Shown here piece by piece: positions 19,342-62,770 of a DNA stretch of 64,000 nt. Location: IMG/VR virus record IMGVR_UViG_3300023218_000040, positions 32,001-96,000 of that record; one strand, given 5' to 3'. This DNA is from a virus. Its lineage: Duplodnaviria > Caudoviricetes. A program made the position numbers and the translations under genes. The notes beneath the pieces are model-generated. The model worked only from the letters and a program-made list of their open reading frames with translations, was not told where the DNA came from and did no database searches. Within the stretch, counting starts at the first letter, position 1. Every line of letters begins with the position of its first letter.

Positions 19342-19458
19342 TAACAATGAGAATCGAAATCGATCTCACTATCGATGGAACTCAAATGGTGGTGGAACCT
19401 ATCACTTGATCCAAAACATTTCGTCCCTATGTTTCTTCACAAACGTCTGGGTGGACAC

Positions 19459-19543
19459 ATGAAGATCTTCAGCATCGATTTATCTAAAACCGGATCAAAC
19501 TCGCTTGTTTGATGCTCTCATAGTTTTGGGATATGACCTATGA
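19459..19543 (+). pseudogene. Possible remnant of a sulfotransferase N-terminus
   Basis: MKIFSIDLSKTGSNSL then +1 shift FDALIVLGYDL*, resembling the PAPS-binding start KIFGIGLSKTGTTSL..AL..LGY. Confidence 0.4.
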
Positions 19544-20346
19544 GTAATGTTACAACAACACAGAAAGAAGAAGTCGATGTGGTCATTCCTTGGGTGAATG
19601 ACAAAGAAGACTGGCAGAGCCTTCGCTATGTCATTCGTTCCGTTGAAAAGAACTTTATCGATATGCGCAACCTATGGATTGTTGGGGATAAGCCAGATTT
19701 TCTGGATCCAAACACCTATAACTACATCCCTAATCCGTCGAAAGACAGTAATGATCTTTTGGTTAGGAATAGACATTTCTGCAACTCGATGTATTTGGCT
19801 GCAATTTGCCCCGAGGTATCTCCAACGTTTTTGTATATGGCCGATAACCATTACCTCGCAACCCCCAGAACTGCCAAGGATTTCCGAACTACAATCTTAG
19901 TGCGAGAAAATATGGCTGAATATTCTCAGATCGAAAGGAAAACCGCCAACACATCATGGCAACTCATGATTTGGGACACGATAGATCGCCTGCTAGATCA
20001 TGGGTTATCAGGGTGGAACTATGAGACACACACCCCTAAACTAGTCAACAAAGACAAGCTTCTTGACTGTCTCGTTTTCTTTGGCATCGGAGATGGCAAA
20101 CTTATCTGGCAAACAGCTTACTTCAACATGTTTCTTACACCAACAACCCGGGGACATCTATCCGAGTCTACCAAGTTGAAAGCTGGGTTCTACGAGAAGT
20201 GCACTGCTGACGAAATTGCGGCCAAGTGTATGGATGCCATCTACATTAATCACAATGACCTTGGTTTGAGTGACGAATTGAAGGCATATTTGGAAGCCTA
20301 CTTTTCAACGCCATCAAAATACGAAAATACTGAGCCCTCGGAGTAA
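19540..20346 (+). CDS. Stealth-family-like phosphoglycosyltransferase / glycosyltransferase
   Basis: VDVVIPWVN (CR1-like), SLRYVIRSVEKNF...LWIVGDKPDFL and FLYMADNHYL (CR2-like). Confidence 0.65.
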   Translation: MSNVTTTQKEEVDVVIPWVNDKEDWQSLRYVIRSVEKNFIDMRNLWIVGDKPDFLDPNTYNYIPNPSKDSNDLLVRNRHFCNSMYLAAICPEVSPTFLYMADNHYLATPRTAKDFRTTILVRENMAEYSQIERKTANTSWQLMIWDTIDRLLDHGLSGWNYETHTPKLVNKDKLLDCLVFFGIGDGKLIWQTAYFNMFLTPTTRGHLSESTKLKAGFYEKCTADEIAAKCMDAIYINHNDLGLSDELKAYLEAYFSTPSKYENTEPSE

Positions 20347-40840: not shown

Positions 40841-43800
40841 AGCATGAACTTATTCAAGAACTCCGTGATCTCTCGCTGTGAGCAACCTTTATCCTTCAGT
40901 TCTTTTGAAATCGGATCCTTATCGAGTCCACGAAGCAAATCACGGACTACCTCATATTCCATTCTACTCAATTGAGATCCCTCAAGCAAGTAGTCACGAA
41001 AAGCTTCTGTTGCCCATGGCACATGGGGCTCGATCAGTTCCAGAATAGCATCAGCAAATACTCGGATTTCGTACTGAGCATGTGGATCGCAGCGTAGCTT
41101 CAGGAAGTGGAACAGGTTATGTAGGTTACCCGACCAATACATTTGGCTGTACGTGGCAACAGGCAGTACCATACGAGCTAGCTCCCTGGCAATACCTGGG
41201 AAGTCACCAGCCAATTCTGACACACCGTTCTGCTCTAGATACGCTGTAATCGCCTCAGAGACGCTTTCCTCGGTGGGATAGGGGTCTACATTGCCAGCGT
41301 CCGCAGCACGCTTCCTGGCCTCCCTGACGGCTACTACGGCTGCTTCCTTGCACCACTCGATACGGCGGCGAACACCATCGGGTGGAGGAGTCAGATCTCC
41401 ATTTTCATTTGGACCTAGAAGATGAAGGTAAGTCTGATAGCTAGTATCGAATACCTCGTCAACAGCCGCCATGACCGCATTATATTCTTGTTCAGTCAGA
41501 ACGTCACCAGAACGACCCTGGCGGTTGCTGGTGCTTTGTGGAGCTAGATGCCCCAAGTCTGGGTGGTACATCTCTCCATCGAGAACTGAGTAACGTGCGC
41601 TGTACTCGTTGATCGAGTTATGAACAATCATTCCGTTTGCTACGAAATTGTGGTTTGGTCCCTCGACGCAGATGTCATACGTATCTTCTATTCCAATCAA
41701 CTCTATTTTGATGATTTTAGATGGTCGGGCTACCATCAAGTTGCCTTTCCCCTTACCTGCTCGATGCAACAACCCATCTCCATGCTCTTGACCGTGAGCC
41801 CTTCGGTGACAGGAGACACACAATGTTACTAGGTTATCGAAATCGTATGCGTGTTCAGGGTAATCAACAACCGGCAATACATGATGCACTTGGAGTTGAT
41901 TCTTGCTTGAACACTCGTTACATCTGTAGTCGAATTTTTCATGCACTTTTGGTGCTTGTGCAGTGGTCCATGCACCTATGAGTTGGCGTTCTGGGGTGAT
42001 CCCTCCTTTCCAGAAATTGCTATTTTCACCAGAGCGAGCACGCTTAATTGCCGATATGTGATCATCAGAATGAACCAAATTTGTACTATACCCATATACA
42101 TCTTTGTTCCATGGTTTATGACCTTTTTTGAAACGATTCTCACCGTTAGAAAACTGTAGACCATGAATACGAAGCCATTTTCTGATTGTATGGTAGCTAC
42201 AGCCAGCGTTTGATGCTATTTCTTGAACTGAATAACCAAGATTTCGTTGGTTATTCATCCAATTGAAATCCTGGTGTGCCGGTATCCCATTACACATAAC
42301 ATAGGCATCTTTGGTTATACACGCACGATTGTTTGTTACTGTTAAACCAACCGCATCTTCCAACCTCTGCCAACCATCAAGCGTATAAATCTGATGGTCC
42401 TTGGAACATTTGAGAGTCTTACCGTTTTCTAATGTTATTTCGAAGACCTGTTTTGGTCCACTGTATATTACATCATTGATTGTACCAGTTGTGAATTGTT
42501 CAGCGGATTCGTCATACACTCGAAGTAACATCGAACGAATTCTAGTTCTATTGAAATCTCTCAAAGATCTTTTCTGCTTGTCCTTTCTCTTTATCGGTGG
42601 ATTTTCATTCCATTTTCTATGAAGATCTGAAAGCTTCATGTATTTTGCTGTACGAACACCGAGCTTAATATGATCTGGCAACTCGAATGTGATAACAGAA
42701 TCGCCAGACAAACAGAACGTACGGTGGCGGTGCCACTGACGAAATACGAAGATCGGAGCCTTGACGTGAAACTTGAAGTTGCACATCTCGAATGGAGTCG
42801 AATTAGATGACACAAAACCATATTTAGTATTTGCTCCACGTACCATTAAAAAACCACTAGACGTAGTGGCACAATATACACTACCGGTATATTGAGATGT
42901 TGAATGGTATTGCTTCCTACTTTCAAGACTGGTACGCCCGTTTGGAAAATATATATTGACGGTGTAACCGCTTTGGCGTTCACGACAATAATGACTATCT
43001 AAACCTAAACGTGGTGAGATAGCAGACACTATGTCTGTGAGATTTTTGGATGTAGAACTAAATGATATTTGATGTCTATCACTTTTGTGATTTCCATCGC
43101 TTTCAACCAAACCAGTTAGTAGTCCTCGTAGTTCTTCTCCAGTTAGATTACGAAGATTTTCTAGTTGGAAATGTTTGTTGTTTGTTTGTGTATCTATTTC
43201 TAAACAAACTCGTAATTCATCTGGAGTAGTAATGTAGAACCTTGTTGTATCTTTACTATCCACCGAACTGGTGTATTCCCAACCCAATCTGTGAAGTAAA
43301 GAGGTTAAAAACGAAATCTTACGTTCCTTTTTGAATCCAAAACTAATCCTATTTGGACTTGCCACGTGACCATCACCAAGGAACATACCGACGAACGTAT
43401 AGAAATCATCAATCACACCGTTATACGGATGGGTTGAGTATCCTAACATGGATTCAAACCACCCCCACTTTGGCATGTCCTTTGCCCGATATACCTTGAA
43501 ATCGTTCTGATACTTTTCCTTAAACAACATTTTGTGTTCGTCGGTTACAGAGTATGACATTCTTTCATTGGAGAATTCATACATGATTCCATCGTAATCA
43601 AAGGATTTAACTTCTAACTCCTCGACTGTGTAAGAACGGGTATCGGGGTTAGGAACAAGAAAAGTTTCGACGGAATTACATTCACACCATTTCTTCCATC
43701 CTTCAATCGTTAAAACTTCCATATCTGGATGATAGCAATGTAGGTGACGCATGAGGTATCGGATCAACCCCTTATCGGAGTTAACCTTCTTTGTACCCTT

Positions 43801-48895: not shown

Positions 48896-51808
48896 TTATG
48901 CTCCATACTCGATTTTGGACATTCTGTTCTCTTTGATGATTTTCATCACATCTTCAACACGAGCGGCAATGTCATCACGGTGAGTAATCAGGAAGGCACG
49001 CTTGCCTTTCTTGGTGCATGTCTCTTTGAGAGCACGTACAGCGTTTTCGGCACCACGAGGACAGATGCCAGAATCGATAAGCTCATCGACCGCCAACAGA
49101 TTGATGCTGTAGTTCATGAACTCGAATACGTCCTGGAATGCGAAGTTCAAAGCGATACGAACCCGGTTACGCTCACCTTTGGAGAGATTACCAAAGTCAA
49201 ACTCTTCGTGATAATCAGTAATGCTCACTGTCAGGTCTGGCTGGAAAGCTACGATGTGTGGTAGCTCCAGGATCTCCAGCCAATACGCAATTCTCTTGTT
49301 CAAGATTGGCATCCATCGGTCGATGATTAGCTTCCTCAAGAACGAATCTTTTTTTGTCAACAAATCTATGAGGTAGTTATAATGTGCGATCAGCAAACGT
49401 AAGTCCTTGATTTCACTCTCATCGACTTTCTTTATTGCTTCTTCACGAAATTTCGTTACACTTTCAACGTGCGGATTTTCGTCTACTTCTACTTTTTCTA
49501 GTTGCTCACGTAGAGCCTTGAGCGTGGCACCGGCACTAGCTGCTTCCTCTACCGATCCGTAAGTGAGGTTTAGGCGGTCGATGTCACGCAGAGCTTCATT
49601 GAGGTTGGAAATCTCTGTCTTGAGTTCGAGTTCTCTTTTCTCCAGGGTTTTCATTTCAGTAGTAACGTGAAGTTCTTTGTCCTTGCTTTCGGCGTACCGC
49701 AAGACAGCTTCTTCTAGACTTTCGGCCAAGGTCTTTTTGTACTCCGGATCAGCTACCCAATGTTGATTGCAGGTAGGACAGGTCTCTTCTTCTAGTTTAG
49801 CTAGTGACGCTTGGGTTTCGGTTACATACTGGTCATCACGTTTCTGTTGACGTTCATGTTCTTTCAATTCGTTCTGGCAGCGACGAACCTCAGATTTGAT
49901 CTCACGCAGGCCCGCTTCCAGTTCTTTCACCTGGGCGTAGGCGTCGGTTGCCAGATTGAGCATTTCGATTTCTTTCTTGACATCAACTGCCTCCAGGGTC
50001 TTGATTGTCTCCTGGAGTTCTGCTATAGTATCAGCTTTTTTCTTTTCCCACGCCTTGGATTTGGCTTCAAGCTCCTTAACCTGGGCTTCGATACGAGAAT
50101 TGGCTTGTTTGGTTGCTTCGATAGAGGATTCTGCGGTCAACAGATCTTTGTTCTTCTCCTTTCGTTCATCCTTGAGAAGCTTTGCCTTTTCGGTCATGAT
50201 GGTGAAACCGAACAGATGCTCGATCACATCACGGCGTTTGTCTTCTGGTAAACGGAAGAACTCCAGGGACTCGGAAGTATTGGCGACAAGATACTCGAAT
50301 AGGGTGATATCGAAACCGAGGATGCCAACGATCTGGTCAGTGGTTTCGTTCTTACCACGAGCTATATCGTGCTTGAGTTTTCGACCATCCTTGGCCTTGA
50401 AGTCAGAGTCATCATCTAGCTTTTTTCGGAACAAGAAGAGCTTGGATGGTCGTTCTGTTCGTTCAACGAGATAGCGGTACTCATCCTTGGTAAATTCGAC
50501 GCTGACTATCATTGAGCCCTTGGGCGATAGTTTATTGATGAGTTTCTGATTTGAGATGCCTCGAACCACCTTGCCAAACAAGGCGTAACATAAGGCGTCG
50601 ATGATTGCGGAATTATGTGTAACGACATAATTATCAGTTACGTATAGATGGTCAGGGTCAGAAACCGTTATACATTGTACCTCTTCCGAACATATTGGTT
50701 TGATGTCAATAATCTCTAAACGTAGAGAATTTTGGTACTGATAAGGTATCGGAAGTTTCTCAATCTTTCGTTGAAGTCGAAATAGGGTTTCTCTCTGAGG
50801 GTGACGTATACCAACACGATATGATGGCTGTCCCTGTCTTTTCTTCCCGTTATGAGTGTATAACTTGTTTAGTTCTGTTATTTTGGCGATGCCACCGATT
50901 TTCCATACCAAGTTTTGAACTTGTGAAGCAAGTACGGGGCTAGTAGTAGTGAATGAAACGGAACCATTAGCATCCACGGTACCATCTGAATCGAGTAGTC
51001 CTTGAAGAAGGTGTTTGGTTTGGGTAATAGACATTTCCATGTATGCATCAGGAATTGTCTTTTCCCAAGCCCGACTATCCCACATGCCCAAGGAACGTAG
51101 ATGAATAGAAACGGGATTGAACCCTTTAGATCCATCAGTAATAGTGTAAGTAAGCTTGTTTGGTCCTCGGACCTCTACCCCATCGGGAAGTATTGAGCGA
51201 ACAGTCTCTACAATTGCCTCATCTTTGGTGGTGAATCGAACACCAGAAGTGAAATTACCGTCACCGATGAGTATACCTAATAGATATGGATCTATTGGTA
51301 CATTTGTATCTGTGCGTTTCATTTCGCCTGGGAATAGGGGGACGTAAGTGCGCCCAGATGCACCTGGGAACTTTTCTCGATGCTTAATTATATCGAACGT
51401 AGATTGAACGGACCATCCCCAATTAGAACCATTCCGATTCCAAATCTTCCACAGATGATCTCCACAGCATTTAACCACCCGTCCGTCTGAAAAGGTAACT
51501 GCAAATACATCTCGAATTCCACGGGGATGCACTCCTGTTACAATTGTAGGTTTTCCGGTCCCAGAGATGATGCAGGAGCCAATTTCCATCTCTCCCATAG
51601 TTGACCAACCATAAGGAGTTAGGATTTTAGAATCTAAAGGTTGAGCTTTTCCACAACCATTTCTGGAATCTTCTCCCCCGGTATCTCGGTTCTCACCCAG
51701 CACAACAGTGATATGATCGCCCCCAAGGGGAACAACCACTTCCTTCGCTCCAAAGGAGAGGAAGTTTCTCAGTCGTAACTCATTAAACTCTAAAGCTTGA
51801 TTCGCCAT
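48896..51808 (-). CDS. gp46: Recombination exonuclease ATPase subunit, gp46/SbcC-like, with intein
   Basis: LRNFLSFG; Walker A NGCGK|S split by intein; coiled coil with CPTC hook; LSKGE signature; LAVDE Walker B; ITH. Confidence 0.95.
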   Translation of the reverse strand: MANQALEFNELRLRNFLSFGAKEVVVPLGGDHITVVLGENRDTGGEDSRNGCGKAQPLDSKILTPYGWSTMGEMEIGSCIISGTGKPTIVTGVHPRGIRDVFAVTFSDGRVVKCCGDHLWKIWNRNGSNWGWSVQSTFDIIKHREKFPGASGRTYVPLFPGEMKRTDTNVPIDPYLLGILIGDGNFTSGVRFTTKDEAIVETVRSILPDGVEVRGPNKLTYTITDGSKGFNPVSIHLRSLGMWDSRAWEKTIPDAYMEMSITQTKHLLQGLLDSDGTVDANGSVSFTTTSPVLASQVQNLVWKIGGIAKITELNKLYTHNGKKRQGQPSYRVGIRHPQRETLFRLQRKIEKLPIPYQYQNSLRLEIIDIKPICSEEVQCITVSDPDHLYVTDNYVVTHNSAIIDALCYALFGKVVRGISNQKLINKLSPKGSMIVSVEFTKDEYRYLVERTERPSKLFLFRKKLDDDSDFKAKDGRKLKHDIARGKNETTDQIVGILGFDITLFEYLVANTSESLEFFRLPEDKRRDVIEHLFGFTIMTEKAKLLKDERKEKNKDLLTAESSIEATKQANSRIEAQVKELEAKSKAWEKKKADTIAELQETIKTLEAVDVKKEIEMLNLATDAYAQVKELEAGLREIKSEVRRCQNELKEHERQQKRDDQYVTETQASLAKLEEETCPTCNQHWVADPEYKKTLAESLEEAVLRYAESKDKELHVTTEMKTLEKRELELKTEISNLNEALRDIDRLNLTYGSVEEAASAGATLKALREQLEKVEVDENPHVESVTKFREEAIKKVDESEIKDLRLLIAHYNYLIDLLTKKDSFLRKLIIDRWMPILNKRIAYWLEILELPHIVAFQPDLTVSITDYHEEFDFGNLSKGERNRVRIALNFAFQDVFEFMNYSINLLAVDELIDSGICPRGAENAVRALKETCTKKGKRAFLITHRDDIAARVEDVMKIIKENRMSKIEYGA
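50612..51646 (-). mobile_element. Class-3 (Ala1, WCT) intein in gp46 (345 aa, LAGLIDADG)
   Basis: AQPLDSKILTP; block B DHLW; block F VQCITV; block G VTHN|S; GILIGDG and GLLDSDG. Confidence 0.9.
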
Positions 51809-52034
51809 CGTAATCCTGCTTAGATAACACATCCGGGTGAATGGACCACTTAAAGACTAGCGTTTCGCCGTCTTTTCCGCTTGTCCTAAAAACGATATGG
51901 TTTTTTTCACACTCAGTCAAGAATGCGTAGACTTCGGCTTTGTCTAGATCCATGAATTCACTAATCCCTTGTGATGAAATAGAACCGTTTTCTAGGATGT
52001 ATTCCAAAATCTCATGTTGTAGCTCAGTATTCAT
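51783..52034 (-). CDS. Small winged-HTH-like protein
   Basis: EILEYILENGSISSQGISEFMDLDKAEVYAFL pattern. Confidence 0.55.
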   Translation of the reverse strand: MNTELQHEILEYILENGSISSQGISEFMDLDKAEVYAFLTECEKNHIVFRTSGKDGETLVFKWSIHPDVLSKQDYDGESSFRV

Positions 52035-52212
52035 TATATTCCTCGTCGGATTCCTCGTGAGAGTAAATTGCATCTGTAGGTTCTAAGTAATGTTTGTTGG
52101 AACATGAGCACGTCGCCTCAAAGTATAGTTCCTCATCATTCCACGCCCATGCTAGTGGCTCGCCGCAGCACGCAGCAAGCTCTTCCCACGCTTCGTGAAA
52201 TAGGTCATGCAT
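52024..52212 (-). CDS. Small acidic Cys-containing protein
   Basis: CCG...CSC; between gp47 and gp46. Confidence 0.5.
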   Translation of the reverse strand: MHDLFHEAWEELAACCGEPLAWAWNDEELYFEATCSCSNKHYLEPTDAIYSHEESDEEYNEY

Positions 52213-52286
52213 TGAAGTTTTTCCTGGATGGAAGTTTGAGTTCTTGTGTTATGTTTATAGTTTCTCAAGAAAATCATGCAAAGTTA

Positions 52287-53333
52287 CTAATTTCCTACAC
52301 TCTGATATAGTTGTACCAGTAATTCAGAGTCGTATTTCGATCCCTCGGTGTCGATTTCTCGTAGATGCTGAATCACGAGTTGATCGACACTTAATCCATC
52401 CTCTGGAATGTCTGTTCCCTCATCCACACCCAAAGCGTCTCGCTTTGGTCGAAGCCTGATATCTCTTACGTGCTCGGACAGGATGTTAGAGATTTCGGTT
52501 GCTTCCTCAATTTCGATACCCATGTCGTCCTGGCACTCGACAACACTTCTGTCGTTGTAGGTGTTTTCGTATGCCCCATTCTCGATTTCACCAAGTAACT
52601 TGGAGAGCTTGATACGATGGAAATTGGGTGCTTCCTCCCAATTAACGAACTCTGGGTCTTTACCCCATTCTAGAATCATGCATCCACGTTTGTTGTCACC
52701 AACATCGTTGAAGTCATGAGGAAAGCAGTTACCAATGTACCAGATTGGTACTCCGTTCTCGTTGACCTTCAACTGTCTCTTGTGGAAGTGACCACTGAAC
52801 ACGGCATCGCACTGGTAAAAATGGTCACCGTGCAAACCACCACGGTCGGGCATTTCGACCATTTCATTTAATAGGAACAAAGGTAATTCAAAGTGTCCGA
52901 ATACATACTTTACTTCGTATGAAGGTGGATCGGTGAATTCATTTCCTACCAACCACGGGCAGAACAGAACATCATCGATTTCGGTGATGGAGTTGATGAC
53001 CGTGATACTGTCTTGAGTTAGGTAGGGAAGAGAGTGGACATTCCGGTTGGTTTTGAAAAACAGGTCGTGGTTGCCCATCAGCCAGTAGATTGGAAGTCCA
53101 GTAGCAACCAATCTTTCGATGGCTTGCCAAGAGTAGTTGACGGTATCCACACGCAGACGTGAGCGATTGTCATACCAATCACCCATGAATATGATGGTAT
53201 CGCAATCGTGTTCATTCACCTGACTGATGAACCAATCCACGAAATCCAGGCAGTCTTGATTGTGCTGCTCGGAGTCAGATTTTTTACCGAAATGGATATC
53301 AGTGAATACTGCGGCTTTTTCGAACAGTGTCAT
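52287..53333 (-). CDS. gp47: Recombination nuclease, gp47/SbcD/Mre11-like
   Basis: FTDIHFG, MGDWYD, MGNHD, GHFE, SGHFH metallophosphoesterase motifs. Confidence 0.95.
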   Translation of the reverse strand: MTLFEKAAVFTDIHFGKKSDSEQHNQDCLDFVDWFISQVNEHDCDTIIFMGDWYDNRSRLRVDTVNYSWQAIERLVATGLPIYWLMGNHDLFFKTNRNVHSLPYLTQDSITVINSITEIDDVLFCPWLVGNEFTDPPSYEVKYVFGHFELPLFLLNEMVEMPDRGGLHGDHFYQCDAVFSGHFHKRQLKVNENGVPIWYIGNCFPHDFNDVGDNKRGCMILEWGKDPEFVNWEEAPNFHRIKLSKLLGEIENGAYENTYNDRSVVECQDDMGIEIEEATEISNILSEHVRDIRLRPKRDALGVDEGTDIPEDGLSVDQLVIQHLREIDTEGSKYDSELLVQLYQSVGN

Positions 53334-53653
53334 TATTGCTTGGGATCGTTGACTTCTAGCTTTCGTAGGTTCTTCAGTTGAACGTATATGTTGTTTTCGC
53401 CATTGGCGGGATATCCCTCAAAGTATCCCTGCTCGTGCCAGAATTCAAGAGTTGCAGCATAGAATCCTGGCTCATTAGGAAAACCATCCATAAAATCCGA
53501 GTTGTCCTCGATGCACAAACCATCCAACCAGTCCTCGGTAATGAGTTGATGCAGATCACGTGGATTTGGTGTACTCACCAAATAGGTAAGAATAGACTCA
53601 CGCAGTCCAATCGCCGCAAAATGGGCATTCTCAATAGCCTTAATCTTCTTCAT
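53333..53653 (-). CDS. Hypothetical protein
   Basis: Between gp55 and gp47, overlapping both. Confidence 0.55.
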   Translation of the reverse strand: MKKIKAIENAHFAAIGLRESILTYLVSTPNPRDLHQLITEDWLDGLCIEDNSDFMDGFPNEPGFYAATLEFWHEQGYFEGYPANGENNIYVQLKNLRKLEVNDPKQ

Positions 53654-55124
53654 CTTCTTGAGCCTCGTAGAATTCACGCTCGATACGATCCATCCTAACA
53701 GAGTCATTCTCTAGCTGTCTAGTGTTTGATGGATTGAAACCGTTTTGCTCCAATAAGTCGTCACGAATTTTACGGGCCTTTTTCTCCTTCTCCAAAGTCG
53801 TCAAGAAACTATGATGAACGATCTGGGTGTAGTAGCCGAATGGATTTTGACCTACTTCTGGATCGAACTTTAGTGCTCCGTTCAGTAGAGACACCAGAGC
53901 TTCGCTTCGCATGTCTTCGATGTAGGTATTTCCGGTAAGGAATACAGTACCATTACGACGAGCCATAAAACAGCCGTATTCGGTTTCCGGACACCAAACC
54001 CGTCCCTTGTAATATTCCGTAGGAATGTTTGGATTAAATACTTTGGACTTCCCCGAACGTCCGCTTTTTCCTCCATGGAAGTCGATATTTTCAACCTTGG
54101 AATATTCACCCTTGGCGAATACCCTAACGGTATACGTATCCTTTTTGCCGTGTCCAATAGGAGGTCTGATACGAACTGTTGTTCTTTTACCACTGAGCGT
54201 ACATAACGCCACAAAAAAGTCAATTTGCTCTTCCGATGTTTGTGTGTAATTGGTATACCCATTGGTTTTCCAACCGTCGCCATCAACCATAGTATCAATC
54301 AGTAAACGGCGCTGATTAGTAGATAGGTTCATCAAAAATTTATAGGTTGGAACTTTATTTGGTGCAACCGATTCTATCAACTGGCAGAGTTCTTTGGTCA
54401 AGTAGAATGATACTTGTTCTGGTACATTCTCGCCCACAACACGAGTACGCTTATACTCTGCAATTTGATAACCGAGGTCAGCAACACATGCCCGAATTCT
54501 ATCGGAAAACTCGCCCTCATTCTGATAAATCGTGATGCGGGTGTAGTTGCGGTTTTCGGATAGGTAGTAATTTCCTTCGGTAATAACCCAACCGACCAAT
54601 TCCACGAACGCATCGGAATATACACCACCTGGAGATTCCAAGGCTGTCCCAATCATTACAAGATTGTCCTGTTCACGAAGGTAATCTACTCGGCGCAGTC
54701 CATTTGTTGTCATGAACTTATGTCCTGGAGTAACCAAGGAGTCCATTCCTTGGACAGTCATGCGGAACATATGACCATCATAGTCGTCTTTGAATATGGA
54801 ACGAATTCTTGACCACACAAGTTTACTATCGTCATAAGATAGGATTTGGTCATCGGTAGTTACATCATCGATCCCTAGCCACCCACGTTGTGTCATACAC
54901 TCTGTGTGTTCATCAACGCAATATCCACGCCAGTTGGCTTTCTTGGAGTAGCGGTCCACCAACATCATTAGCATCTTGACTAATTCTTGGGTCATACATT
55001 GGGCGGGGGTCACATCGGGATTTTTCTTTTGCTTCTCAGCTAGCATAGTCTTGGATAGTCGAATTTGCTCCATAAGGCTTGCATTGTTTAGGTAATTGGT
55101 GGTTCTTTTCTTTCTGGTAACCAT
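53640..55124 (-). CDS. gp55: Late-transcription sigma factor, T4 gp55-like, with intein (spliced product about 163 aa)
   Basis: NYLNN; after splicing ANWRGY|TYIEDMRSEA; KFDPE...NPFGYYTQI..HSFL...EKEKK; T4-like order 55-47-46. Confidence 0.9.
   Translation of the reverse strand: MVTRKKRTTNYLNNASLMEQIRLSKTMLAEKQKKNPDVTPAQCMTQELVKMLMMLVDRYSKKANWRGYCVDEHTECMTQRGWLGIDDVTTDDQILSYDDSKLVWSRIRSIFKDDYDGHMFRMTVQGMDSLVTPGHKFMTTNGLRRVDYLREQDNLVMIGTALESPGGVYSDAFVELVGWVITEGNYYLSENRNYTRITIYQNEGEFSDRIRACVADLGYQIAEYKRTRVVGENVPEQVSFYLTKELCQLIESVAPNKVPTYKFLMNLSTNQRRLLIDTMVDGDGWKTNGYTNYTQTSEEQIDFFVALCTLSGKRTTVRIRPPIGHGKKDTYTVRVFAKGEYSKVENIDFHGGKSGRSGKSKVFNPNIPTEYYKGRVWCPETEYGCFMARRNGTVFLTGNTYIEDMRSEALVSLLNGALKFDPEVGQNPFGYYTQIVHHSFLTTLEKEKKARKIRDDLLEQNGFNPSNTRQLENDSVRMDRIEREFYEAQEDEED
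53928..54920 (-). mobile_element. Intein in gp55 (331 aa, LAGLIDADG-type)
   Basis: CVDEHTECMT; VTPGHKF; GWVITEG and TMVDGDG; VWCPET...FLTGN|T. Confidence 0.9.
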
Positions 55125-55221
55125 TAAAGCATTCCTCTTTTCCCCTCTTGAGTGTTTCTCAAGAAATTAATATGTTAGGAACATGAACACTTTCCTCATA
55201 AAAGTCAATAGATTTTCCTTG

Positions 55222-55227
55222 TAAATA
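55222..55227 (+). promoter_or_regulatory. Putative late promoter TAAATA
   Basis: 20 nt upstream of ATG 55247. Confidence 0.6.
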
Positions 55228-55246
55228 TCCGAAGAGGAAACTACCT

Positions 55247-56113
55247 ATGGCCCAACTAGATAATCGACCTACTTTCGCCTTTGAACATGTGGCTGCAAAG
55301 CTAGAACCATTTGATCTCATGCGTCTAGCGTTTGTGACTGGTTCTGAAGATACAAGGCAGCAAACAAGCGAGAAGCTTCAGTTGGCTCTTAGCGGACCTC
55401 TCGGCGGTGCTGGCGCTGATGTTGCGGCTGTCCAATCTGTTCGCTCGCAGTTGGATGGAATTCGCACTCCACGAGGACGCTCCAGTGATGAGCATGCCTT
55501 GGCACCAATCTTCGCCACGGGTGGACTAGTCTTTCCTTATAATCCCACTGTGTCAGAAAAGATGTCTGTTAAGTATGATGCTGTTGAATTAACGCACTCA
55601 AACGAGTCGTACCACGTATATCGTTCTACGGATAACGTTCGCATCAGCATTTCAGAAGCAGTATGGACATGCGACACATTTGCAAATGCTGTCTATGCAC
55701 TATCCGTTATTCACTTTTTGAGAACCTATAGTCAGATGGATTTCGGTCGAAATCGAACCGGTCGTCCACCTTCTCCTATGTGGTTTTCTGCTTTTGGAAA
55801 TTACGCATTCCATCGAGTTCCGGTCTTATTGGAGTCGGCTGATTGGAGCTTTCCTAGCGATGTGGACTACGTGGGCATACCAGAGTTTGGAACACCTGAG
55901 CATGCGAGTGGACAGCTACGATTTGAAAGAACTCCTGATGGAAACTACACATGGTTGCCAATGGTGTTCAAGATTCCTTCCATCCAGTTGATTGTTCAAC
56001 ACTCCCCAAGGTACTGGATCAACTATAGCCTGGATGACTTTCGTTCAGGGAAGATGCTACGAGATCGAAAGAGTTTTCACGTTCTCCCAGGCAACACGAA
56101 CAGGAGAAAGTAA
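55247..56113 (+). CDS. Baseplate / tail-tube initiator-like protein
   Basis: GGLVFPYNP...YD..ELTHSN; PPSPMWFSAFG...RVPVLLES..W.FP.DVDY; heads the baseplate operon. Confidence 0.7.
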   Translation: MAQLDNRPTFAFEHVAAKLEPFDLMRLAFVTGSEDTRQQTSEKLQLALSGPLGGAGADVAAVQSVRSQLDGIRTPRGRSSDEHALAPIFATGGLVFPYNPTVSEKMSVKYDAVELTHSNESYHVYRSTDNVRISISEAVWTCDTFANAVYALSVIHFLRTYSQMDFGRNRTGRPPSPMWFSAFGNYAFHRVPVLLESADWSFPSDVDYVGIPEFGTPEHASGQLRFERTPDGNYTWLPMVFKIPSIQLIVQHSPRYWINYSLDDFRSGKMLRDRKSFHVLPGNTNRRK

Positions 56114-56114
56114 G

Positions 56115-56411
56115 ATGCCATTCAGACCAAGGTACACATCGGATTCCCCCTATGGGTTCACACCGATTATTGGACGGTTCATGGTTTACTACGTGCATCG
56201 TGCGGTTCCGGTTCACCAACTTGATCAAACGATCACCCTCGATCATCGATATGAGAATCGTCCAGATTTGCTGGCTAACGATTTGTACGGAGACCCAGAC
56301 ATGTTCTGGATCATTGCAGTCCGCAATGGATTGCAAGACCCTGTGTTTGATTTCAAGGCTGGTGAGAGATACACCATTCCACACCCTTCATTTGCTAGGA
56401 CACTGGTTTAA
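56115..56411 (+). CDS. Baseplate wedge protein, gp53/LysM-like
   Basis: YENRPDLLANDLYGDPDMFWIIAVRNGLQDP; start set at ATG 56115. Confidence 0.88.
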   Translation: MPFRPRYTSDSPYGFTPIIGRFMVYYVHRAVPVHQLDQTITLDHRYENRPDLLANDLYGDPDMFWIIAVRNGLQDPVFDFKAGERYTIPHPSFARTLV

Positions 56412-59185
56412 TGGTAAACATTCAATTTAAGTTGGAATCTCGACTTAACTCCGTTCAGGATATAGATCGACAGCTTGATACACTTGTAAAGCAAGGATCT
56501 GTAGCCGAAGCCAGAGCGTTGCTAGCTCAACTTGGTCCGGATGTCGTTCGTCAGTTCAACAGCGGAACTCAGGGGGCACTATCGGTACTAAATGGACCGT
56601 TGTCGAATGTGTCCTCGGAGATACGAGGCGTACTAGCTAGGCAAGCAAACACATTGTTGTCTAATACTACTGTATCGGCACTGAATGCCATTCGGCAGAA
56701 GACCAATCTCGGGAATTTTAACCTAGCGTCACCGAACGATCTTGCCACTCGGATTCTGGGTAAGGAAGACAACCGATTGACTACTTCTCAGCCGCAGCGT
56801 GAACAGCAGTCAGGAACTGCCAATCGTTCATCTGCTGACAACATTCCCATTCGGGATAATGCACCATTGGATGTAGAACCTCTTGAGAATACGGGTATTT
56901 CAGAAAACGTATTGAACGACTATATTAATCTTCAGTATCATATCACATTGTCTTTAGTTCCATATGGAAAGCTATCCGGTATCCAAACTGAGATACCTAT
57001 TGCTCCTAGCGAACGAGGACAGCCTGGGGCAGATACTCTTCGTCGTTTGATTGAAAACGATGGATCTGTAGTATTTGCTTCTACTGGTGAAATTAGCCAA
57101 ACTGCTGCGGTCATCCTTACTGCCGAAGAGCAATTCAGTCGTGAGGAATTAGCAGAAATCGAAACATCGTCTTTTGGGGATGAAGAAGAAATCGGGGACC
57201 GTTTGGTTGATACGACCGGTAAGAATTACTACAACATTAAAAGCGTTAAGTTCGACACGGTGATGTCACCAAGCAAAGAGAACCCATACATGAATCAGAT
57301 GTTGGGTATCAAAATGATTTTGATTGAGCCTCATGGCTTTAAGTTGTATGAAGATATTCGTCGTTTGGCTGATGAGCTTGGATATCGTGGAATGACAGCA
57401 GCACGAGTAGTGTGGCGGGTGGACATCGGTTTTTCTGGCTACAACCAAGATACCGGAGAGTGGGTAGAAAGAATTGACCTTGATACTCGTTCACCAAGGC
57501 AAACACAAACGCTAACGTATTACCAGAACATTTCCAAGATGCAAGCTAAGGTTGACCACACTGGGACAACATACGATATTGATATGGTTCCTTCAGGGCA
57601 CATTGCATATCGACCAGAGGAAATGACCCTAAAAGCCAAGTCTATTTTCGCTGGAGCAGAAGGTAGTAATGTCGCCAAGGTTGGAACGTTCGGCGGTTTT
57701 CTAAAGAAGCTTGAGACTGCTATGAAGGAGGCTAAGGATCAAAGAACGCATAAGCAGATCAAACGTGAATACAAGTTTTTCGCTCCTACGGCATTGCTAG
57801 AGGCTAAGTTTTTCGAGGACAACTTCGCTAGTAGGCACGGTTTCATTGGCAACAATCCTGATAAGGGTCAGGTTATTAGCGGTGGTCGTGATATCAACGT
57901 AATCAATTTGGTGGAGACTGCATTGAATGATTTGGAATTGGTGTGGGATAGGTTCTTGGCAGACCAAGATCCATCGTTTGAAAAGCCACGCATTCATTGG
58001 GGCATTCGATTCAACACACGTTATGTGAATAGTGCTAACTCCAGAATTTACGATGTAGACACGATTGTGTTGGAATACATTATCGAGCCATATGCAACAT
58101 ACAAGAAAGCAAGCATAGAAAACATTATCGATGCTCGTGCTCTAGTAGATCCGGCTGCACAGCTACGCAGACTAGAAGAAATGCTACGCTTGGGAATGGT
58201 TAACCGTGTGTATGACTATATTCACACTTCGGAAAATACCGAAGTGATTGATTTTGATGTTACGTTGAAGAACTTCTACTACCATTCGCTATTCACTTAC
58301 CCGGATAACCCGACTCGTGCTGGTAGTCAAACTACTACTGATGCTAGTAGTACAGGTGGTAAAAGAAAGCAAGAGGCTTTCACTGGAGATAGAACAGGTA
58401 TCGAGGACACCATTTCTGTAACTAACCGACGACAGGAAATCAATACCGAGTCTGCGTTACAAAGACTGTTTGGTTCTGGAATTGACAATGCTCCAGCCAG
58501 TTGCTTTATTAATCAGAATTCCAATCCATACGATATTCTAGCGGGTGGTTTTAACGAATTTCCACAGGACGATTACTATGGTGCTATTGCTTCATCTGCC
58601 AATCAGAAGAAGAACAAGTACCATTTGCAATTGAATGATCATCTTAGAAACGACTTGCTTCGAATCGACAATCTACAGGTTCGTGGAGATCCTATCTGGC
58701 TATTGACTCCGTATGGAGTTGAGAGTGGAAACACATTGGCCACACAGAAAGCAGCAAAGGATGGAACGAATCGAATCGGTATTGTCCAGACTCAAGCAAG
58801 CAGGCTGATCTACCTGCGTTTGTTTGCTCCTGATCAAGTGGATTACATGAACCCCGACCGAGAGTTTGCCTCGTCTTCATGTAACGTTATTGGTGGTTTC
58901 TACGAAGTTTTCCGAGTAACTAGTACGTTTGAGGGTGGTAAGTTCACGCAAACGATTACTGGTGCCAAAATCAACCACTTGAACTTTATCGAAAATTTCA
59001 TTTCAGTAGCACGTGATGAGGTTAGAAACGGAAACGGTCGAGTCCCCCCAGTTTCTAACGAAAGGGTAACACAGAATCCTCCTAATGCTCAGCCACCGAA
59101 GCCGGTTGATTTGACTGGAAACGAACTAACTACTAACCAACAAAATACACTTTCAACACAGCAATTCTTTGTTGGCGGGAATTAA
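56411..59185 (+). CDS. Large baseplate hub protein (gp27/late-control-D-like)
   Basis: LQVRGDPIWL and GGFYEVFRVTSTFEGGKFTQ motifs; between gp53 and gp5. Confidence 0.7.
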   Translation: MVNIQFKLESRLNSVQDIDRQLDTLVKQGSVAEARALLAQLGPDVVRQFNSGTQGALSVLNGPLSNVSSEIRGVLARQANTLLSNTTVSALNAIRQKTNLGNFNLASPNDLATRILGKEDNRLTTSQPQREQQSGTANRSSADNIPIRDNAPLDVEPLENTGISENVLNDYINLQYHITLSLVPYGKLSGIQTEIPIAPSERGQPGADTLRRLIENDGSVVFASTGEISQTAAVILTAEEQFSREELAEIETSSFGDEEEIGDRLVDTTGKNYYNIKSVKFDTVMSPSKENPYMNQMLGIKMILIEPHGFKLYEDIRRLADELGYRGMTAARVVWRVDIGFSGYNQDTGEWVERIDLDTRSPRQTQTLTYYQNISKMQAKVDHTGTTYDIDMVPSGHIAYRPEEMTLKAKSIFAGAEGSNVAKVGTFGGFLKKLETAMKEAKDQRTHKQIKREYKFFAPTALLEAKFFEDNFASRHGFIGNNPDKGQVISGGRDINVINLVETALNDLELVWDRFLADQDPSFEKPRIHWGIRFNTRYVNSANSRIYDVDTIVLEYIIEPYATYKKASIENIIDARALVDPAAQLRRLEEMLRLGMVNRVYDYIHTSENTEVIDFDVTLKNFYYHSLFTYPDNPTRAGSQTTTDASSTGGKRKQEAFTGDRTGIEDTISVTNRRQEINTESALQRLFGSGIDNAPASCFINQNSNPYDILAGGFNEFPQDDYYGAIASSANQKKNKYHLQLNDHLRNDLLRIDNLQVRGDPIWLLTPYGVESGNTLATQKAAKDGTNRIGIVQTQASRLIYLRLFAPDQVDYMNPDREFASSSCNVIGGFYEVFRVTSTFEGGKFTQTITGAKINHLNFIENFISVARDEVRNGNGRVPPVSNERVTQNPPNAQPPKPVDLTGNELTTNQQNTLSTQQFFVGGN

Positions 59186-59186
59186 C

Positions 59187-61868
59187 ATGACAGCTAGACC
59201 ATATATTAACGGAATAGTGAATGCGGCTAATGCTGAGCAGGCATCTGGACGGGGCGTACCCAACATCCAGCATCAGCTTGGACTGTTTCATATCGGCCTT
59301 GTAATGGATGATTTTGATGAACAACGATTGGGGCAGGTATGGGTGTATCTCCCTGGTATCTCTGCACGTCGATTCTCCGAGGATGATCGTAGTTTGCCGC
59401 TATACGGTGGAACGGTTCCAGACAGAGACCGGGAAGGTGCTGTTCTTCGGTGGGACCAAAAGCTAAGACTAGGATGGCTTCGATGCGCTCCAATGTTTCC
59501 GTTCTTTGGTGGTGACGATTTTCGTGTCCAGAGAAGTTCAGATGGTGACATTCGAAATGCCACAAAGGGTGACGTGCAAAGCTATGGTTTCTGGGCACAA
59601 CCACGTATCGGAGACTATGTTGGTGTGCTATTTGCCAATGGTGATCCGCAGAGCGGATATTGGATTGGTATGCCACCCAAATACAATCGTAATTTCATGG
59701 TTCCAGGAAATCCGGGAAGGTTACCAGAAGAACTTGATGGCAAGACCGACACCGATGGTGGTGCCGTTCACAAACTTACCCGACAAATCAAGGAAGAAGC
59801 TTTACAAGTAGAGGGAGATGCTTTAGTACCATCTTTGGACAAGGCACGGCGCATCAATGTCAGTGTGCCACGTCCAGCAGGTTCTCCTGTTACTCAGACA
59901 CAGGACGACACTAGAGCGCCACCAGTTGAAGTAGAGCTTACCAATGTTCTTGCATCAACGGAGTTTGCATTTAACACCCAAAGTGCAGGACTTTTGTGTG
60001 ACCCGCTTCGTGGTGCTGGAAACTCCTCCGCTCGCAGAGAAAGCCCGTCATATATTGTGGGCTTCAAATCCCCAGGCTGGAATTTCGATAGCGAGAAGAA
60101 GAACCTCAACACTGGTAATGGATCTACCACTCGATTTCAAGACGAAGCTTCGGTATCTCGGTATCAGGCTGTGGCTACTGCTGGACATCAGTTTGTCATG
60201 GATGATCATCCCGATTTTCAGGGCGTCCGTATGCGTACGTCTAAAGGACATCAGATATATCTGAATGATAGCTGTGATGATCCCTTCATCTACATTTCCA
60301 CATCGCAGGGTAAGGTGTGGATTGAGCTAGGAGACAGTGGCAAGGTCAACATTTTCGCTGAGAACTCGGTGTCTGTTCACTCCCGAAAGGATATCAATCT
60401 GACTGCTGATCGAGATTTGAACATTGACGTTCAGCAAGACTTCAAGCTGATGGTTCGTGGTGACACTGAAATGGCACTGAAGGGCCGTGTTGACATTGAG
60501 ACAGGTCGTAATAACAGAACACAAGATGGATTAAACTTTGAGTCTCGTGGTGACATTGGAACGGGTGCTAGAAAGGATTTGTTCATTCACAACTATGGGA
60601 ATGTGGACTGGACAGTCGATGATCACTTGGATATGACTATTGGTAATGTCGCCGGTTTGACTGGCGGTATGGATGTGTTGGTAAAGAAAGGTGACCTTGA
60701 TGTTCAAGCCGAAACTGATGTGGATGTATTGGCTGGAAACACGATGACGCTGGAAACTACCAGCGGTCGCCTTGATGTGCGATCTGGTAGCACGATGCAC
60801 CACACGTCTGCAAGCCAGATGAATCTTCGTACAGAGGGCGGTAACATTCATCAGACTGCTGCTAGCCAAATTCATCTTAACAGCCCTGGAAATCAAGCAG
60901 TTTCGGCAGACACTGCTACTCCTGCTGATGAAGCGACGAAGCCAACCATTCGCCAGTTGATTCAAGTTCCAATTGCTCCAACCGAAGAAGAGATTAAGTT
61001 TTGTCGTCGAACCAGTGACACTCACAACACATTGGATGAAGCCATTGTTCCTCAGCACCAGCCATGGCCAGAAGCATGTACCACCATACTCGGGTTTAAT
61101 GCCTCTGGCGACGAGGGAGAAGTGGTATCACGTTCCGGTGCCGCAAGACCAGAGGCTAGCCATCCGCTACCAAAGGTGCAGAAGGATGGCGTGTTTAATG
61201 CTCAGCAGTACAACTCCAACAACCAGGAAGAGGCTCCAGTATACGAGAAGATATTCGATCCGGACCCTGGTACATTTAACGTATGTTCGTCGTATACCAC
61301 ATCACAACGAATGATCGACTTCTTGAAGAAGGAAGAGGGTTCAAGGAGCAAGGCATACCGAGATGCTGGTAAGTGGGCTATTGGATTTGGTCATCAGATC
61401 AATGTAGGAGATACAATCTTTGGTGACACTATCAATGGTAGAGTAACACAGGAAGACATCGCTCGATTGAACAGAACCAACGGTTCTTTGACTATTAGTG
61501 AGGAAGAGAAGGAACGACTTCTTAGGGAAGATTTGGCCGAGTTCGAAGAGGCTGTTTGCCGAATCGTTACAACCGAGATTACTCAGTCTCAATTTGATGC
61601 CCTGGTGTCTTTTACTTACAACACAGGACCAGGAAACCTATCCAGGCTTGTCAAAACAAGTAATTTAAACAGTGGTGATTTCACTAATGTTCCACAGGCG
61701 TGGATGAGATATCATCTTTGTACCAGATGCCCACCAAACAGGCGTGCGATTATAGAGGGGGTTCTACGAGGTCGCCGCCAGCGAGAGCTTGAACAGTTCT
61801 TCGCTTACAGCGGCGACCCCGTTGAACCGAGGACTGGACAGAAGTCCATTGTGGATGCACTCGTTTAA
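59187..61868 (+). CDS. gp5: Baseplate central spike, gp5/VgrG-like, with C-terminal GH24 lysozyme
   Basis: OB-fold D...RLGQVWVY, YGFWAQPRIG.V.V.FANGDP; GHQFVMDD; beta-helix repeats; KKEEG...AYRD..W.IGFGH...QFDALVSFTYN.G. Confidence 0.9.
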   Translation: MTARPYINGIVNAANAEQASGRGVPNIQHQLGLFHIGLVMDDFDEQRLGQVWVYLPGISARRFSEDDRSLPLYGGTVPDRDREGAVLRWDQKLRLGWLRCAPMFPFFGGDDFRVQRSSDGDIRNATKGDVQSYGFWAQPRIGDYVGVLFANGDPQSGYWIGMPPKYNRNFMVPGNPGRLPEELDGKTDTDGGAVHKLTRQIKEEALQVEGDALVPSLDKARRINVSVPRPAGSPVTQTQDDTRAPPVEVELTNVLASTEFAFNTQSAGLLCDPLRGAGNSSARRESPSYIVGFKSPGWNFDSEKKNLNTGNGSTTRFQDEASVSRYQAVATAGHQFVMDDHPDFQGVRMRTSKGHQIYLNDSCDDPFIYISTSQGKVWIELGDSGKVNIFAENSVSVHSRKDINLTADRDLNIDVQQDFKLMVRGDTEMALKGRVDIETGRNNRTQDGLNFESRGDIGTGARKDLFIHNYGNVDWTVDDHLDMTIGNVAGLTGGMDVLVKKGDLDVQAETDVDVLAGNTMTLETTSGRLDVRSGSTMHHTSASQMNLRTEGGNIHQTAASQIHLNSPGNQAVSADTATPADEATKPTIRQLIQVPIAPTEEEIKFCRRTSDTHNTLDEAIVPQHQPWPEACTTILGFNASGDEGEVVSRSGAARPEASHPLPKVQKDGVFNAQQYNSNNQEEAPVYEKIFDPDPGTFNVCSSYTTSQRMIDFLKKEEGSRSKAYRDAGKWAIGFGHQINVGDTIFGDTINGRVTQEDIARLNRTNGSLTISEEEKERLLREDLAEFEEAVCRIVTTEITQSQFDALVSFTYNTGPGNLSRLVKTSNLNSGDFTNVPQAWMRYHLCTRCPPNRRAIIEGVLRGRRQRELEQFFAYSGDPVEPRTGQKSIVDALV

Positions 61869-62770
61869 GAAACGAAGAGATCCGTAGGATCGATACCCAT
61901 TTCATCGGCAATGCGGTGTACCTCTTTGTACACTTTGTCGCTTGCCTTGTTGCGTAGCTGACGAACACGTTCCTTCGAGATCTCCAGTTCATTACCCAGA
62001 GTTTCAAGGGTTTGCTGACCATCTTCTTTCTCGGTTAGAACCTGCGAGATAAAGATACGGCGTTCACGATCTGTGAGCACGTTCTTCATTGCCTCGTTGA
62101 CAATCGTTTTCTGGAACGTTACAACGTCGTCATCGATTACCACTGCCATAGAACCACTATCAGTATTCAACTCAGCGATGGTGTCCTCACGGGTTAAGCT
62201 GTCATCATCAGGGTTTGTGATAGGATCGTTCAGGGACTCGTGGGGACGCTGGAACATATCGTACATTTGCTGTACTTCCGTGATGGACACCTTGTGCTCC
62301 TCAGCGAGTTCCTGAGCTACCTTCGTGGTCAGCTTGAACTGACCAGTACGCATCATCTCGATGGCAATCCTCTTTCGTAATGCGTAGAATAGTCGCTTCT
62401 TGGTGTGGTTGGTACAAACATGCATCAGGAAATAGTTTTTGGTGATGTACCCCTGCATCATACCTTTGACGCACACCTTGGCATAGGTTGCGAAACGAAC
62501 CCCCGCTCCCAGGTCGAACCTTTCAGCGGCCTCAATGAGCGCAACCATACCCTCGGACAGCATTTCATCGGTTGGCATCTGGTAGCCCGAAAGCTCCTTG
62601 ATAGCTCGCCAAATGATTGGCCCGTAGTGGATGACGATTTTCGTCAGGTAAGTTTCGTTGTCTCCGGTCTCTCGCCACTTTTCGAATAGCTCTCGCTCTT
62701 CGTCAGCGGACAAGAGGGTTCGATATTGCTTGACAAAAATCTTTGCATCGTTTGATATTACTTCTTTCAT
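61865..62770 (-). CDS. rpoH: Sigma70-family sigma factor, RpoH (sigma32)-like
   Basis: EMLSEGMVALIEAAERFD...RFATYA (region 2); KRLFYALRK (RpoH-box-like); TLETLGNELEISKERVRQL (region 4.2). Confidence 0.85.
   Translation of the reverse strand: MKEVISNDAKIFVKQYRTLLSADEERELFEKWRETGDNETYLTKIVIHYGPIIWRAIKELSGYQMPTDEMLSEGMVALIEAAERFDLGAGVRFATYAKVCVKGMMQGYITKNYFLMHVCTNHTKKRLFYALRKRIAIEMMRTGQFKLTTKVAQELAEEHKVSITEVQQMYDMFQRPHESLNDPITNPDDDSLTREDTIAELNTDSGSMAVVIDDDVVTFQKTIVNEAMKNVLTDRERRIFISQVLTEKEDGQQTLETLGNELEISKERVRQLRNKASDKVYKEVHRIADEMGIDPTDLFVS

Follow-up and report, generated by a model that had tools for sequence, protein, structure and literature searches.

The 64,000 nt window analyzed here (the whole stretch of DNA examined, positions 32,001 to 96,000 of the IMG/VR virus record IMGVR_UViG_3300023218_000040) carries a gene for a phage T4 gp55-type late sigma factor that is interrupted by an intein. 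The record is 204 kb long and ~55% complete, and the preferred reading of the locus, to which a probability of about 0.8 is given, is that a mobile, endonuclease-bearing selfish intein lies in the single gp55-type gene of a T4-superfamily jumbo phage and splices constitutively. The gene and its parts are as follows:

53640..55124, minus strand: gp55-like late sigma factor precursor gene, intein-interrupted (494 aa + stop)
54921..55124, minus strand: N-extein, aa 1–68; ends SKKANWRGY, aligns with T4 gp55 residues 5–63 and holds the N13 equivalent
53928..54920, minus strand: intein, aa 69–399 (331 aa); HINT domain with a nested double-motif LAGLIDADG homing endonuclease
53643..53927, minus strand: C-extein, aa 400–494 (95 aa); begins TYIEDMRSEA and aligns with T4 gp55 residues 64–116

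The insert begins CVDEHTE and ends VFLTGN, with Cys1 at one end, Gly-Asn at the other and Thr at the +1 position that follows, and the base composition does not shift across it. Homologues that have no intein run unbroken through the junction (ANWRGYTYIDDMKSEA), and the empty alleles read NWRGYTYIDDM across it, so that precise excision is expected. A profile of the intein-free alleles matches the phage record in two pieces only, profile positions 1–65 and 63–156, which lie ~1 kb apart; by sequence comparison, this two-piece match together with the unbroken homologues is far above chance. The initial annotation, made from the DNA letters, had placed a 331-aa C...GN intein with LAGLIDADG motifs in the NWRGY/TY motif and had proposed that its removal restores a 163-aa sigma factor. 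Those boundaries are exact, and the predicted spliced product (N-extein plus C-extein) is indeed 163 aa long. As the profile matches the record solely in two pieces, the interrupted gene is the sole gp55 detected in it, and that single copy would need splicing to be whole, as had also been supposed.

The host protein

The late-sigma families PHROG 12791 (4e-30) and PHROG 234 (9e-24) match the exteins in two stretches that skip the insert, and both exteins align to T4 gp55 (PDB 7D7C chain F); for the C-extein, the direct alignment comprises T64 and then Q69–E116. A profile of 41 intein-free proteins aligns with residues 2–116 of the T4 protein (7D7C_F; E = 7.4e-21) and is continuous across the junction, a comparison that the initial annotation had proposed as a check and that bears out its assignment of the exteins. 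The closest relatives of the exteins in a library of 1.84 billion proteins are intein-free, 150–270 aa long and 56–72% identical over the C-extein. These alignments place the host protein among the late sigma factors of the gp55 family. Most of the intein-bearing homologues (P0007–P0122) have an N-extein of 160–220 aa, compared with 68 aa here, and the intein thus occurs in both short and long forms of the protein.

The insertion point corresponds by alignment to the bond between Y63 and T64 of T4 gp55, in the H2-H3 linker of the sigma-region-2-like domain and six residues ahead of the position of E70, the first of the acidic H3 residues that contact the clamp helices. In the T4 cryo-EM structure, H3 residues E70, D74, and E77 contact the β′ clamp helices, and N13, L54, R57, F86, H95, Y97, and T99 make up the pockets for the −10-like element (PMC7892883). 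The first two clamp-helix contacts are retained in the protein encoded by the window (D404 for E70 and E408 for D74) and E77 is replaced by Val; among the pocket residues N13, F86, Y97, and T99 are kept (N14, F420, Y431, and T433, respectively), and R57, L54, and H95 are changed to Lys, Tyr, and Phe. The insertion splits the sigma-region-2-like domain and the DNA-pocket residues are distributed over both exteins, so it is reasonable to infer that the unspliced precursor should be inactive.

Anatomy and fold of the intein

The conserved intein blocks and the two endonuclease motifs are readily located in the insert; counts refer to 121 homologues:

54882..54920, minus strand: block A, Cys1-VDEHTECMTQRG; Cys1 (Cys69) is invariant (121/121)
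54708..54749, minus strand: block B, GMDSLVTPGHKFMT; contains TPGH (T132-P-G-H135), with Thr B:7 and His B:10 invariant
54567..54611, minus strand: LAGLIDADG motif 1, AFVELVGWVITEGNY; includes VELVGWVITEG, with the acidic Glu (E183) kept in 116/121
54267..54311, minus strand: LAGLIDADG motif 2, RRLLIDTMVDGDGWK; includes LLIDTMVDGDG, with the Asp (D283) kept in 118/121
53958..54002, minus strand: block F, RVWCPETEYGCFMAR; includes VWCPETEYGCF, with Trp-Cys invariant and C378 at F:4 (121/121)
53925..53948, minus strand: block G and residue +1, TVFLTGN/T; Thr G:5, penultimate Gly, terminal Asn, Thr+1

Conservation within the intein peaks in blocks F and G (mean pairwise identity 71%). The terminal Asn (N399) is present in all 121 homologues and Thr G:5 (T397) in 111; the penultimate His is absent, its place being taken by Gly in 116, and residue +1 is Thr in 100, Ser in 20 and Asn in one. 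Position B:12 is Phe in the window, and across the homologues it is F (54), L (51), M (6), I (4) or K (2) and never Trp (0/121); in 73 IMG/VR loci it is L (30), I (21), F (18), M (3) or W (1). When the block F/G peptide was searched against the PDB with phmmer, no intein was matched, and the placement of the Cys at F:4 therefore relies on motif and spacing.

An AlphaFold2 model of the intein, made with an alignment of 37 homologues, has a predicted local distance difference test (pLDDT) score of 95 and a predicted template modeling (pTM) score of 0.92. Foldseek aligns the model with full-length inteins at E values of 3e-15 to 1e-8 (TliVMA, 3e-15; PI-PfuI, PhoVMA, PI-SceI, and PI-TkoII), and its central domain with I-DmoI (TM-score 0.62–0.68 by target, E ~1e-6). 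That domain is modeled as the alpha-beta-beta-alpha-beta-beta-alpha fold of a LAGLIDADG endonuclease, present twice, and the insert is confidently predicted to fold as a HINT domain, its two termini together, with a double-motif LAGLIDADG endonuclease. In addition, the insert aligns end-to-end (E = 3e-19) with the annotated intein of a mycobacteriophage metallophosphoesterase that is also the recombination directionality factor (RDF), and tblastn finds further inteins in actinophage portal, terminase, and methylase genes. Model and sequence relatives together make a strong case that the insert is a full intein with an endonuclease domain.

Distribution and mobility

A search for homologues, limited to proteins of 271–865 aa, gave 424 matches, of which the best 120 clusters (at 90% identity) were examined; at least these 120 all have the intein at the gp55 site, on contigs that reach 638 kb. 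The window's own gp55-intein protein is present on a 360-kb contig as well. In IMG/VR, 152 contigs encode a relative of the intein, and 73 of the 80 loci retrieved from them have an uninterrupted intein at the gp55 site, all but one of the 73 (72/73) flanked by a recognizable N[WV]R.Y-type motif ahead of the Cys and by [TS]Y.[DE]EM after the Asn. In GenBank ~580 phage records match gp55, and the intein is found only in those of Synechococcus phages B3 and B23. The gp55 site is thus occupied by an intein in hundreds of environmental phages. The database entry for one intein-bearing gp55 (P0043), an "unnamed protein product" on a 60-kb contig, names the moss Sphagnum tenellum as its source; contamination of the plant assembly with phage DNA is the probable explanation.

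The intein is patchily distributed over the host proteins. On a tree of the exteins its presence requires 21 changes in the most parsimonious reconstruction, at least six of them forced by well-supported branches; the tree has 127 columns and many unresolved forks and leaves out 52 representatives without a detectable junction pattern as well as rows with short flanks, so that only the lower bound of six gains or losses is firm. Several supported sister pairs differ in intein state, and the gp55 of the window groups with three intein-free proteins (P0123–P0125), which are its nearest relatives, and one that bears the intein (P0004). The syntenic metagenomic contig L003 encodes an intein-free gp55 of 215 aa, whose junction reads GCTAACTGGCGCGGGTAC/ACTTACATCGATGATATG. 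Between the window and phage B23 the inteins are 49% identical and the exteins 32%.

Some inteins at the gp55 site are mini-inteins of only 167–170 aa, and others, of 237–297 aa, have no recognizable LAGLIDADG motifs. Such reduced forms (P0154, P0221, P0166, P0194, P0146, and P0193) retain the VWCPETE...LTGN splicing blocks. Empty, full, decayed, and mini-intein alleles are therefore all present at this one site, a distribution typical of a homing element that goes through invasion, decay, and loss. The patchy occurrence and the greater conservation of the intein than of the exteins point indirectly to homing, and both endonuclease acidic residues are conserved. The initial annotation had called for a search for intein-bearing and intein-free alleles, and both kinds exist; it had also considered that its proposal of a regulatory role would fail if inteins at this site were common and spliced constitutively, and the site is in fact commonly occupied.

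Neighboring genes, late promoter sequences, and other inteins

The gene order is T4-like, with gp55 followed by a small open reading frame (ORF), gp47 (SbcD-like) and gp46 (SbcC-like), and with baseplate/virion genes divergent from them; the order gp55-small ORF-gp47-gp46 is common to cyanophage B23 and contig L003. The small ORF (124 aa, window 53333–53707, minus strand) has no PHROG match, overlaps the final 68 nt of gp55 and abuts gp47. An ORF of 96–115 aa likewise overlaps the 3′ end of gp55 in contigs L003, L004, and L005, and it looks like a conserved unnamed gene. A second sigma factor gene, of the sigma-70 family (window 61865–62770, minus strand; phrog_351, 2.8e-31), lies among the baseplate genes. 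A megablast search of 52000–57000 against GenBank phages found no match, and thus there is no close cultured relative. The 204-kb record gave no match to gp45 (PF02916) in a search that is uninformative, as control genomes were equally blank.

The initial annotation had spoken of a TAAATA-driven virion program that depends on this sigma factor. The T4 late box TATAAATA has no site in the 64-kb window, and [C/G]TAAATA is not enriched there (17 seen versus 13.7 expected), so such a program is not established for this phage. One GTAAATA (window 55221–55227, plus strand) lies ~20 nt upstream of the ATG (55247) of a gene for a virion structural protein, within the 122 nt that separate this gene from the divergent gp55, and is a possible late promoter by its position. 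A scan of 53200–55400 for promoters and terminators gave only background levels.

Inteins are unusually numerous in this phage, where at least five genes besides gp55 carry one, and their presence is not special to gp55. Pfam Intein_splicing matches occur in five ORFs of the record; the further such ORFs lie at record coordinates 18844–20004, 73617–74516 (window 41617–42516), 136170–137180, and 152319–152678. The gp46/SbcC-like ORF (window 48896–51832, minus strand; 978 aa) has ~350 aa more than the 625-aa, intein-free gp46 of L003, and its residues ~57–420 match solely the profiles of intein-bearing terminase, primase, and helicase-loader PHROGs. The match to these profiles and the shorter L003 protein indicate a second intein two genes away from gp55.

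Splicing chemistry and alternative explanations

In the preferred reading, the intein would have invaded the sole gp55-type gene at the conserved NWRGY/TY site, and after translation it would remove itself by the class 1 route. Cys1 would first form a thioester, the N-extein would then be transferred to Thr+1, and the terminal Asn, preceded by Gly instead of His, would cyclize, leaving the exteins ligated as the 163-aa gp55. The nested LAGLIDADG enzyme would cut intein-free gp55 alleles of co-infecting relatives, into which the intein would be copied, and the element should persist since its target motif is conserved and an imprecise deletion would ruin an essential gene. The closest relative that has been tested sets a precedent for the splicing: the RDF intein of mycobacteriophage Bethlehem gp51 is fully spliced at time zero in Escherichia coli, its penultimate Gly is optimal (a change of Gly to His slows half completion to >5 h) and its endonuclease is toxic to the E. 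coli cloning host (PMC5050341).

Several points weigh against this reading. The analogy with the Bethlehem intein rests on just 25% identity, and splicing, its constitutive nature and endonuclease activity are all predicted properties of the gp55 intein. The scores with PF14890 and TIGR01445 are under the curated cut-offs (23.5 versus 35.8 and 22.4 versus 24.5 bits, respectively), and recognition of the intein therefore relies on its relatives and its fold; the sub-threshold scores mark it as a divergent lineage. Given the incompleteness of the record, a second, uninterrupted gp55 may lie outside it. Finally, the combination of an invariant block-F Cys with Cys1 and Thr/Ser+1 is atypical of class 1 and could signal a different first step or redox sensitivity. 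F:4 is usually Asp in standard inteins and is the site of the nucleophile in class 3 inteins (PMC2807308), and the Cys found there may be a relay nucleophile, a substitute for the Asp, or a redox partner of Cys1.

The alternative that survives best, although it is still unlikely, concerns this chemistry and leaves the role of the element selfish: the block-F Cys, alone or in relay with Cys1, would attack the N-terminal junction to give a branched thioester at block F that is then passed to Thr+1. Besides the departure from the usual Asp, three marks of class 3 are conserved (Cys F:4 in 121/121, Thr G:5 in 111/121 and Thr/Ser+1 in 120/121 homologues), and the 19-residue spacing from Cys to Thr equals that of Cys124–Thr143 in MchDnaB1 (PMC7664689). 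WCT inteins that start with Ser1 or Cys1 are known and have been flagged as unresolved (PMC2807308). On the other hand, the invariance of Cys1 argues that it is used, the junction-activating Trp B:12 of class 3 is nearly absent (0/121 homologues and 1/73 IMG/VR loci), and Kelley et al. treated the related RDF intein as class 1 (PMC5050341). A formal assignment to class 3 was rejected on the presence of Cys1 and the absence of Trp B:12.

The initial annotation had suggested that splicing of gp55 could act as a post-translational switch between replication and late expression. In its most concrete form, a reversible disulfide or oxidation of Cys1 and the block-F Cys would hold gp55 inactive until the cell is reducing or otherwise permissive. 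Each of these cysteines is invariant in the 121 homologues, known inteins have F:4 at the N-terminal scissile bond (PMC2807308), redox traps that use catalytic cysteines are documented in Msm DnaBi1 (PMC6195587), and a disulfide-bonded conformer of the precursor was seen for a mutant of the related RDF intein (PMC5050341). The division of the sigma-region-2-like domain and its pocket residues, from which an inactive precursor is expected, and the one gp55 copy in the record also suit a switch. Nevertheless, such a switch is improbable. Close relatives, one of them syntenic, run the same program on an intein-free gp55; the patchy presence and decaying forms suit a parasite better than an adopted regulator; several unrelated genes of the phage also contain inteins; and a wild-type relative that likewise ends in Gly-Asn needs no cue to splice fully (PMC5050341). 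Moreover, any intein within an essential gene trivially "gates" that gene.

It is least likely of all, and very improbable, that the intein no longer splices and that gp55 is inactive with another sigma factor, such as the sigma-70-family protein mentioned above, serving the late genes; that second gene, the lack of TATAAATA, the unenriched [C/G]TAAATA and the missing penultimate His would fit, but the frame is nowhere disrupted, the catalytic residues are all conserved over more than 120 diverged homologues (most strongly in blocks F and G), the exteins are conserved as well, T4 pocket residues included, and Gly is the best residue before the Asn in the relative that has been tested. This conservation led to the rejection of a pseudogene or dead insertion.

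Significance

In the literature searched, which did not include most subscription journals or InBase, no intein is described in a sigma factor of a phage or bacterium, gp55 included. The protein is thus a new host for a known kind of element and extends the range of phage and bacterial intein hosts to a sigma-family initiation factor. The view of the initial annotation that a transcription factor is an unusual host holds to that extent, although there is a precedent in the TFB/TFIIB intein of Methanocaldococcus jannaschii (PMC6801210; PMC2602779). The allele is abundant and no curiosity, being found in hundreds of environmental phages and in two cultured cyanophages that carry no intein annotation, and jumbo-phage gp55 genes of ~500–630 aa should be annotated as a sigma factor plus an intein. 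With alleles that are full, decayed, mini, or empty, the site offers a natural series for studies of the homing cycle. The present evidence reveals no new regulatory mechanism, and its value is moderate for intein biology and annotation and low for regulation. Were the redox or thiol trap real after all, which is doubtful, it would constitute a post-translational sigma checkpoint, with late transcription awaiting the splicing of gp55, across a very large group of uncultured jumbo phages.

Comparison with known systems

The exteins resemble T4 gp55 over residues 2–116 of the latter, with N13, F86, Y97, and T99 conserved along with two of the three acidic residues that contact the clamp helices, and the gp47/gp46 neighbors are shared. 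T4 gp55 differs in lacking an intein and in being two residues longer just after the junction (YTQSWKQEM versus YT-YIEDM here). For phage CBB, a gp55-like gene but no intein is reported in the published description. The cultured Synechococcus phages B3 and B23 (MN695334 and MN695335) share the gene order and carry, at the corresponding gp55 site, a homologous intein of 340 aa (NFANY/C...LTGN/SY); their gp289 is annotated "hypothetical protein; phage T4-like gp55," with no mention of an intein under product or note.

The intein itself can be compared with that in the metallophosphoesterase/RDF gene of cluster-A mycobacteriophages (Bethlehem gp51; compared as Nhonho gp52), with which it aligns end-to-end at the identity and E value given above. 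The two share Cys1, the block B T..H, two LAGLIDADG motifs, the block F VWC, the LTGN end, and Ser/Thr+1; they differ in insertion site (the GNHD motif of a metallophosphatase versus the gp55 H2-H3 linker) and in host (actinobacteriophages versus jumbo T4-like phages). With the class 3 inteins (MP-Be DnaB and Msm/Mch DnaB1) the gp55 intein has Cys F:4, Thr G:5, Thr/Ser+1, and a link to phages in common, but its Cys1 nucleophile and lack of Trp B:12 fall outside the definition of that class (PMC2807308; PMC5050341).

The structurally known inteins TliVMA (7QSU), PI-PfuI (1DQ3), and PI-SceI (1VDE) have the same HINT plus nested double-motif LAGLIDADG fold that is modeled for the gp55 intein. They are only 10–16% identical to it and longer (366–454 versus 331 aa), and they reside in ATPase or ribonucleotide reductase genes of archaeal or yeast hosts. 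With regard to the function of the interrupted gene, a likeness drawn from published descriptions is the TFB/TFIIB of M. jannaschii, a promoter-recognition and initiation factor that also contains an intein (PMC6801210; PMC2602779); that intein differs from the one in gp55 in being archaeal, in residing in an unrelated host protein, and in having a degenerate endonuclease.

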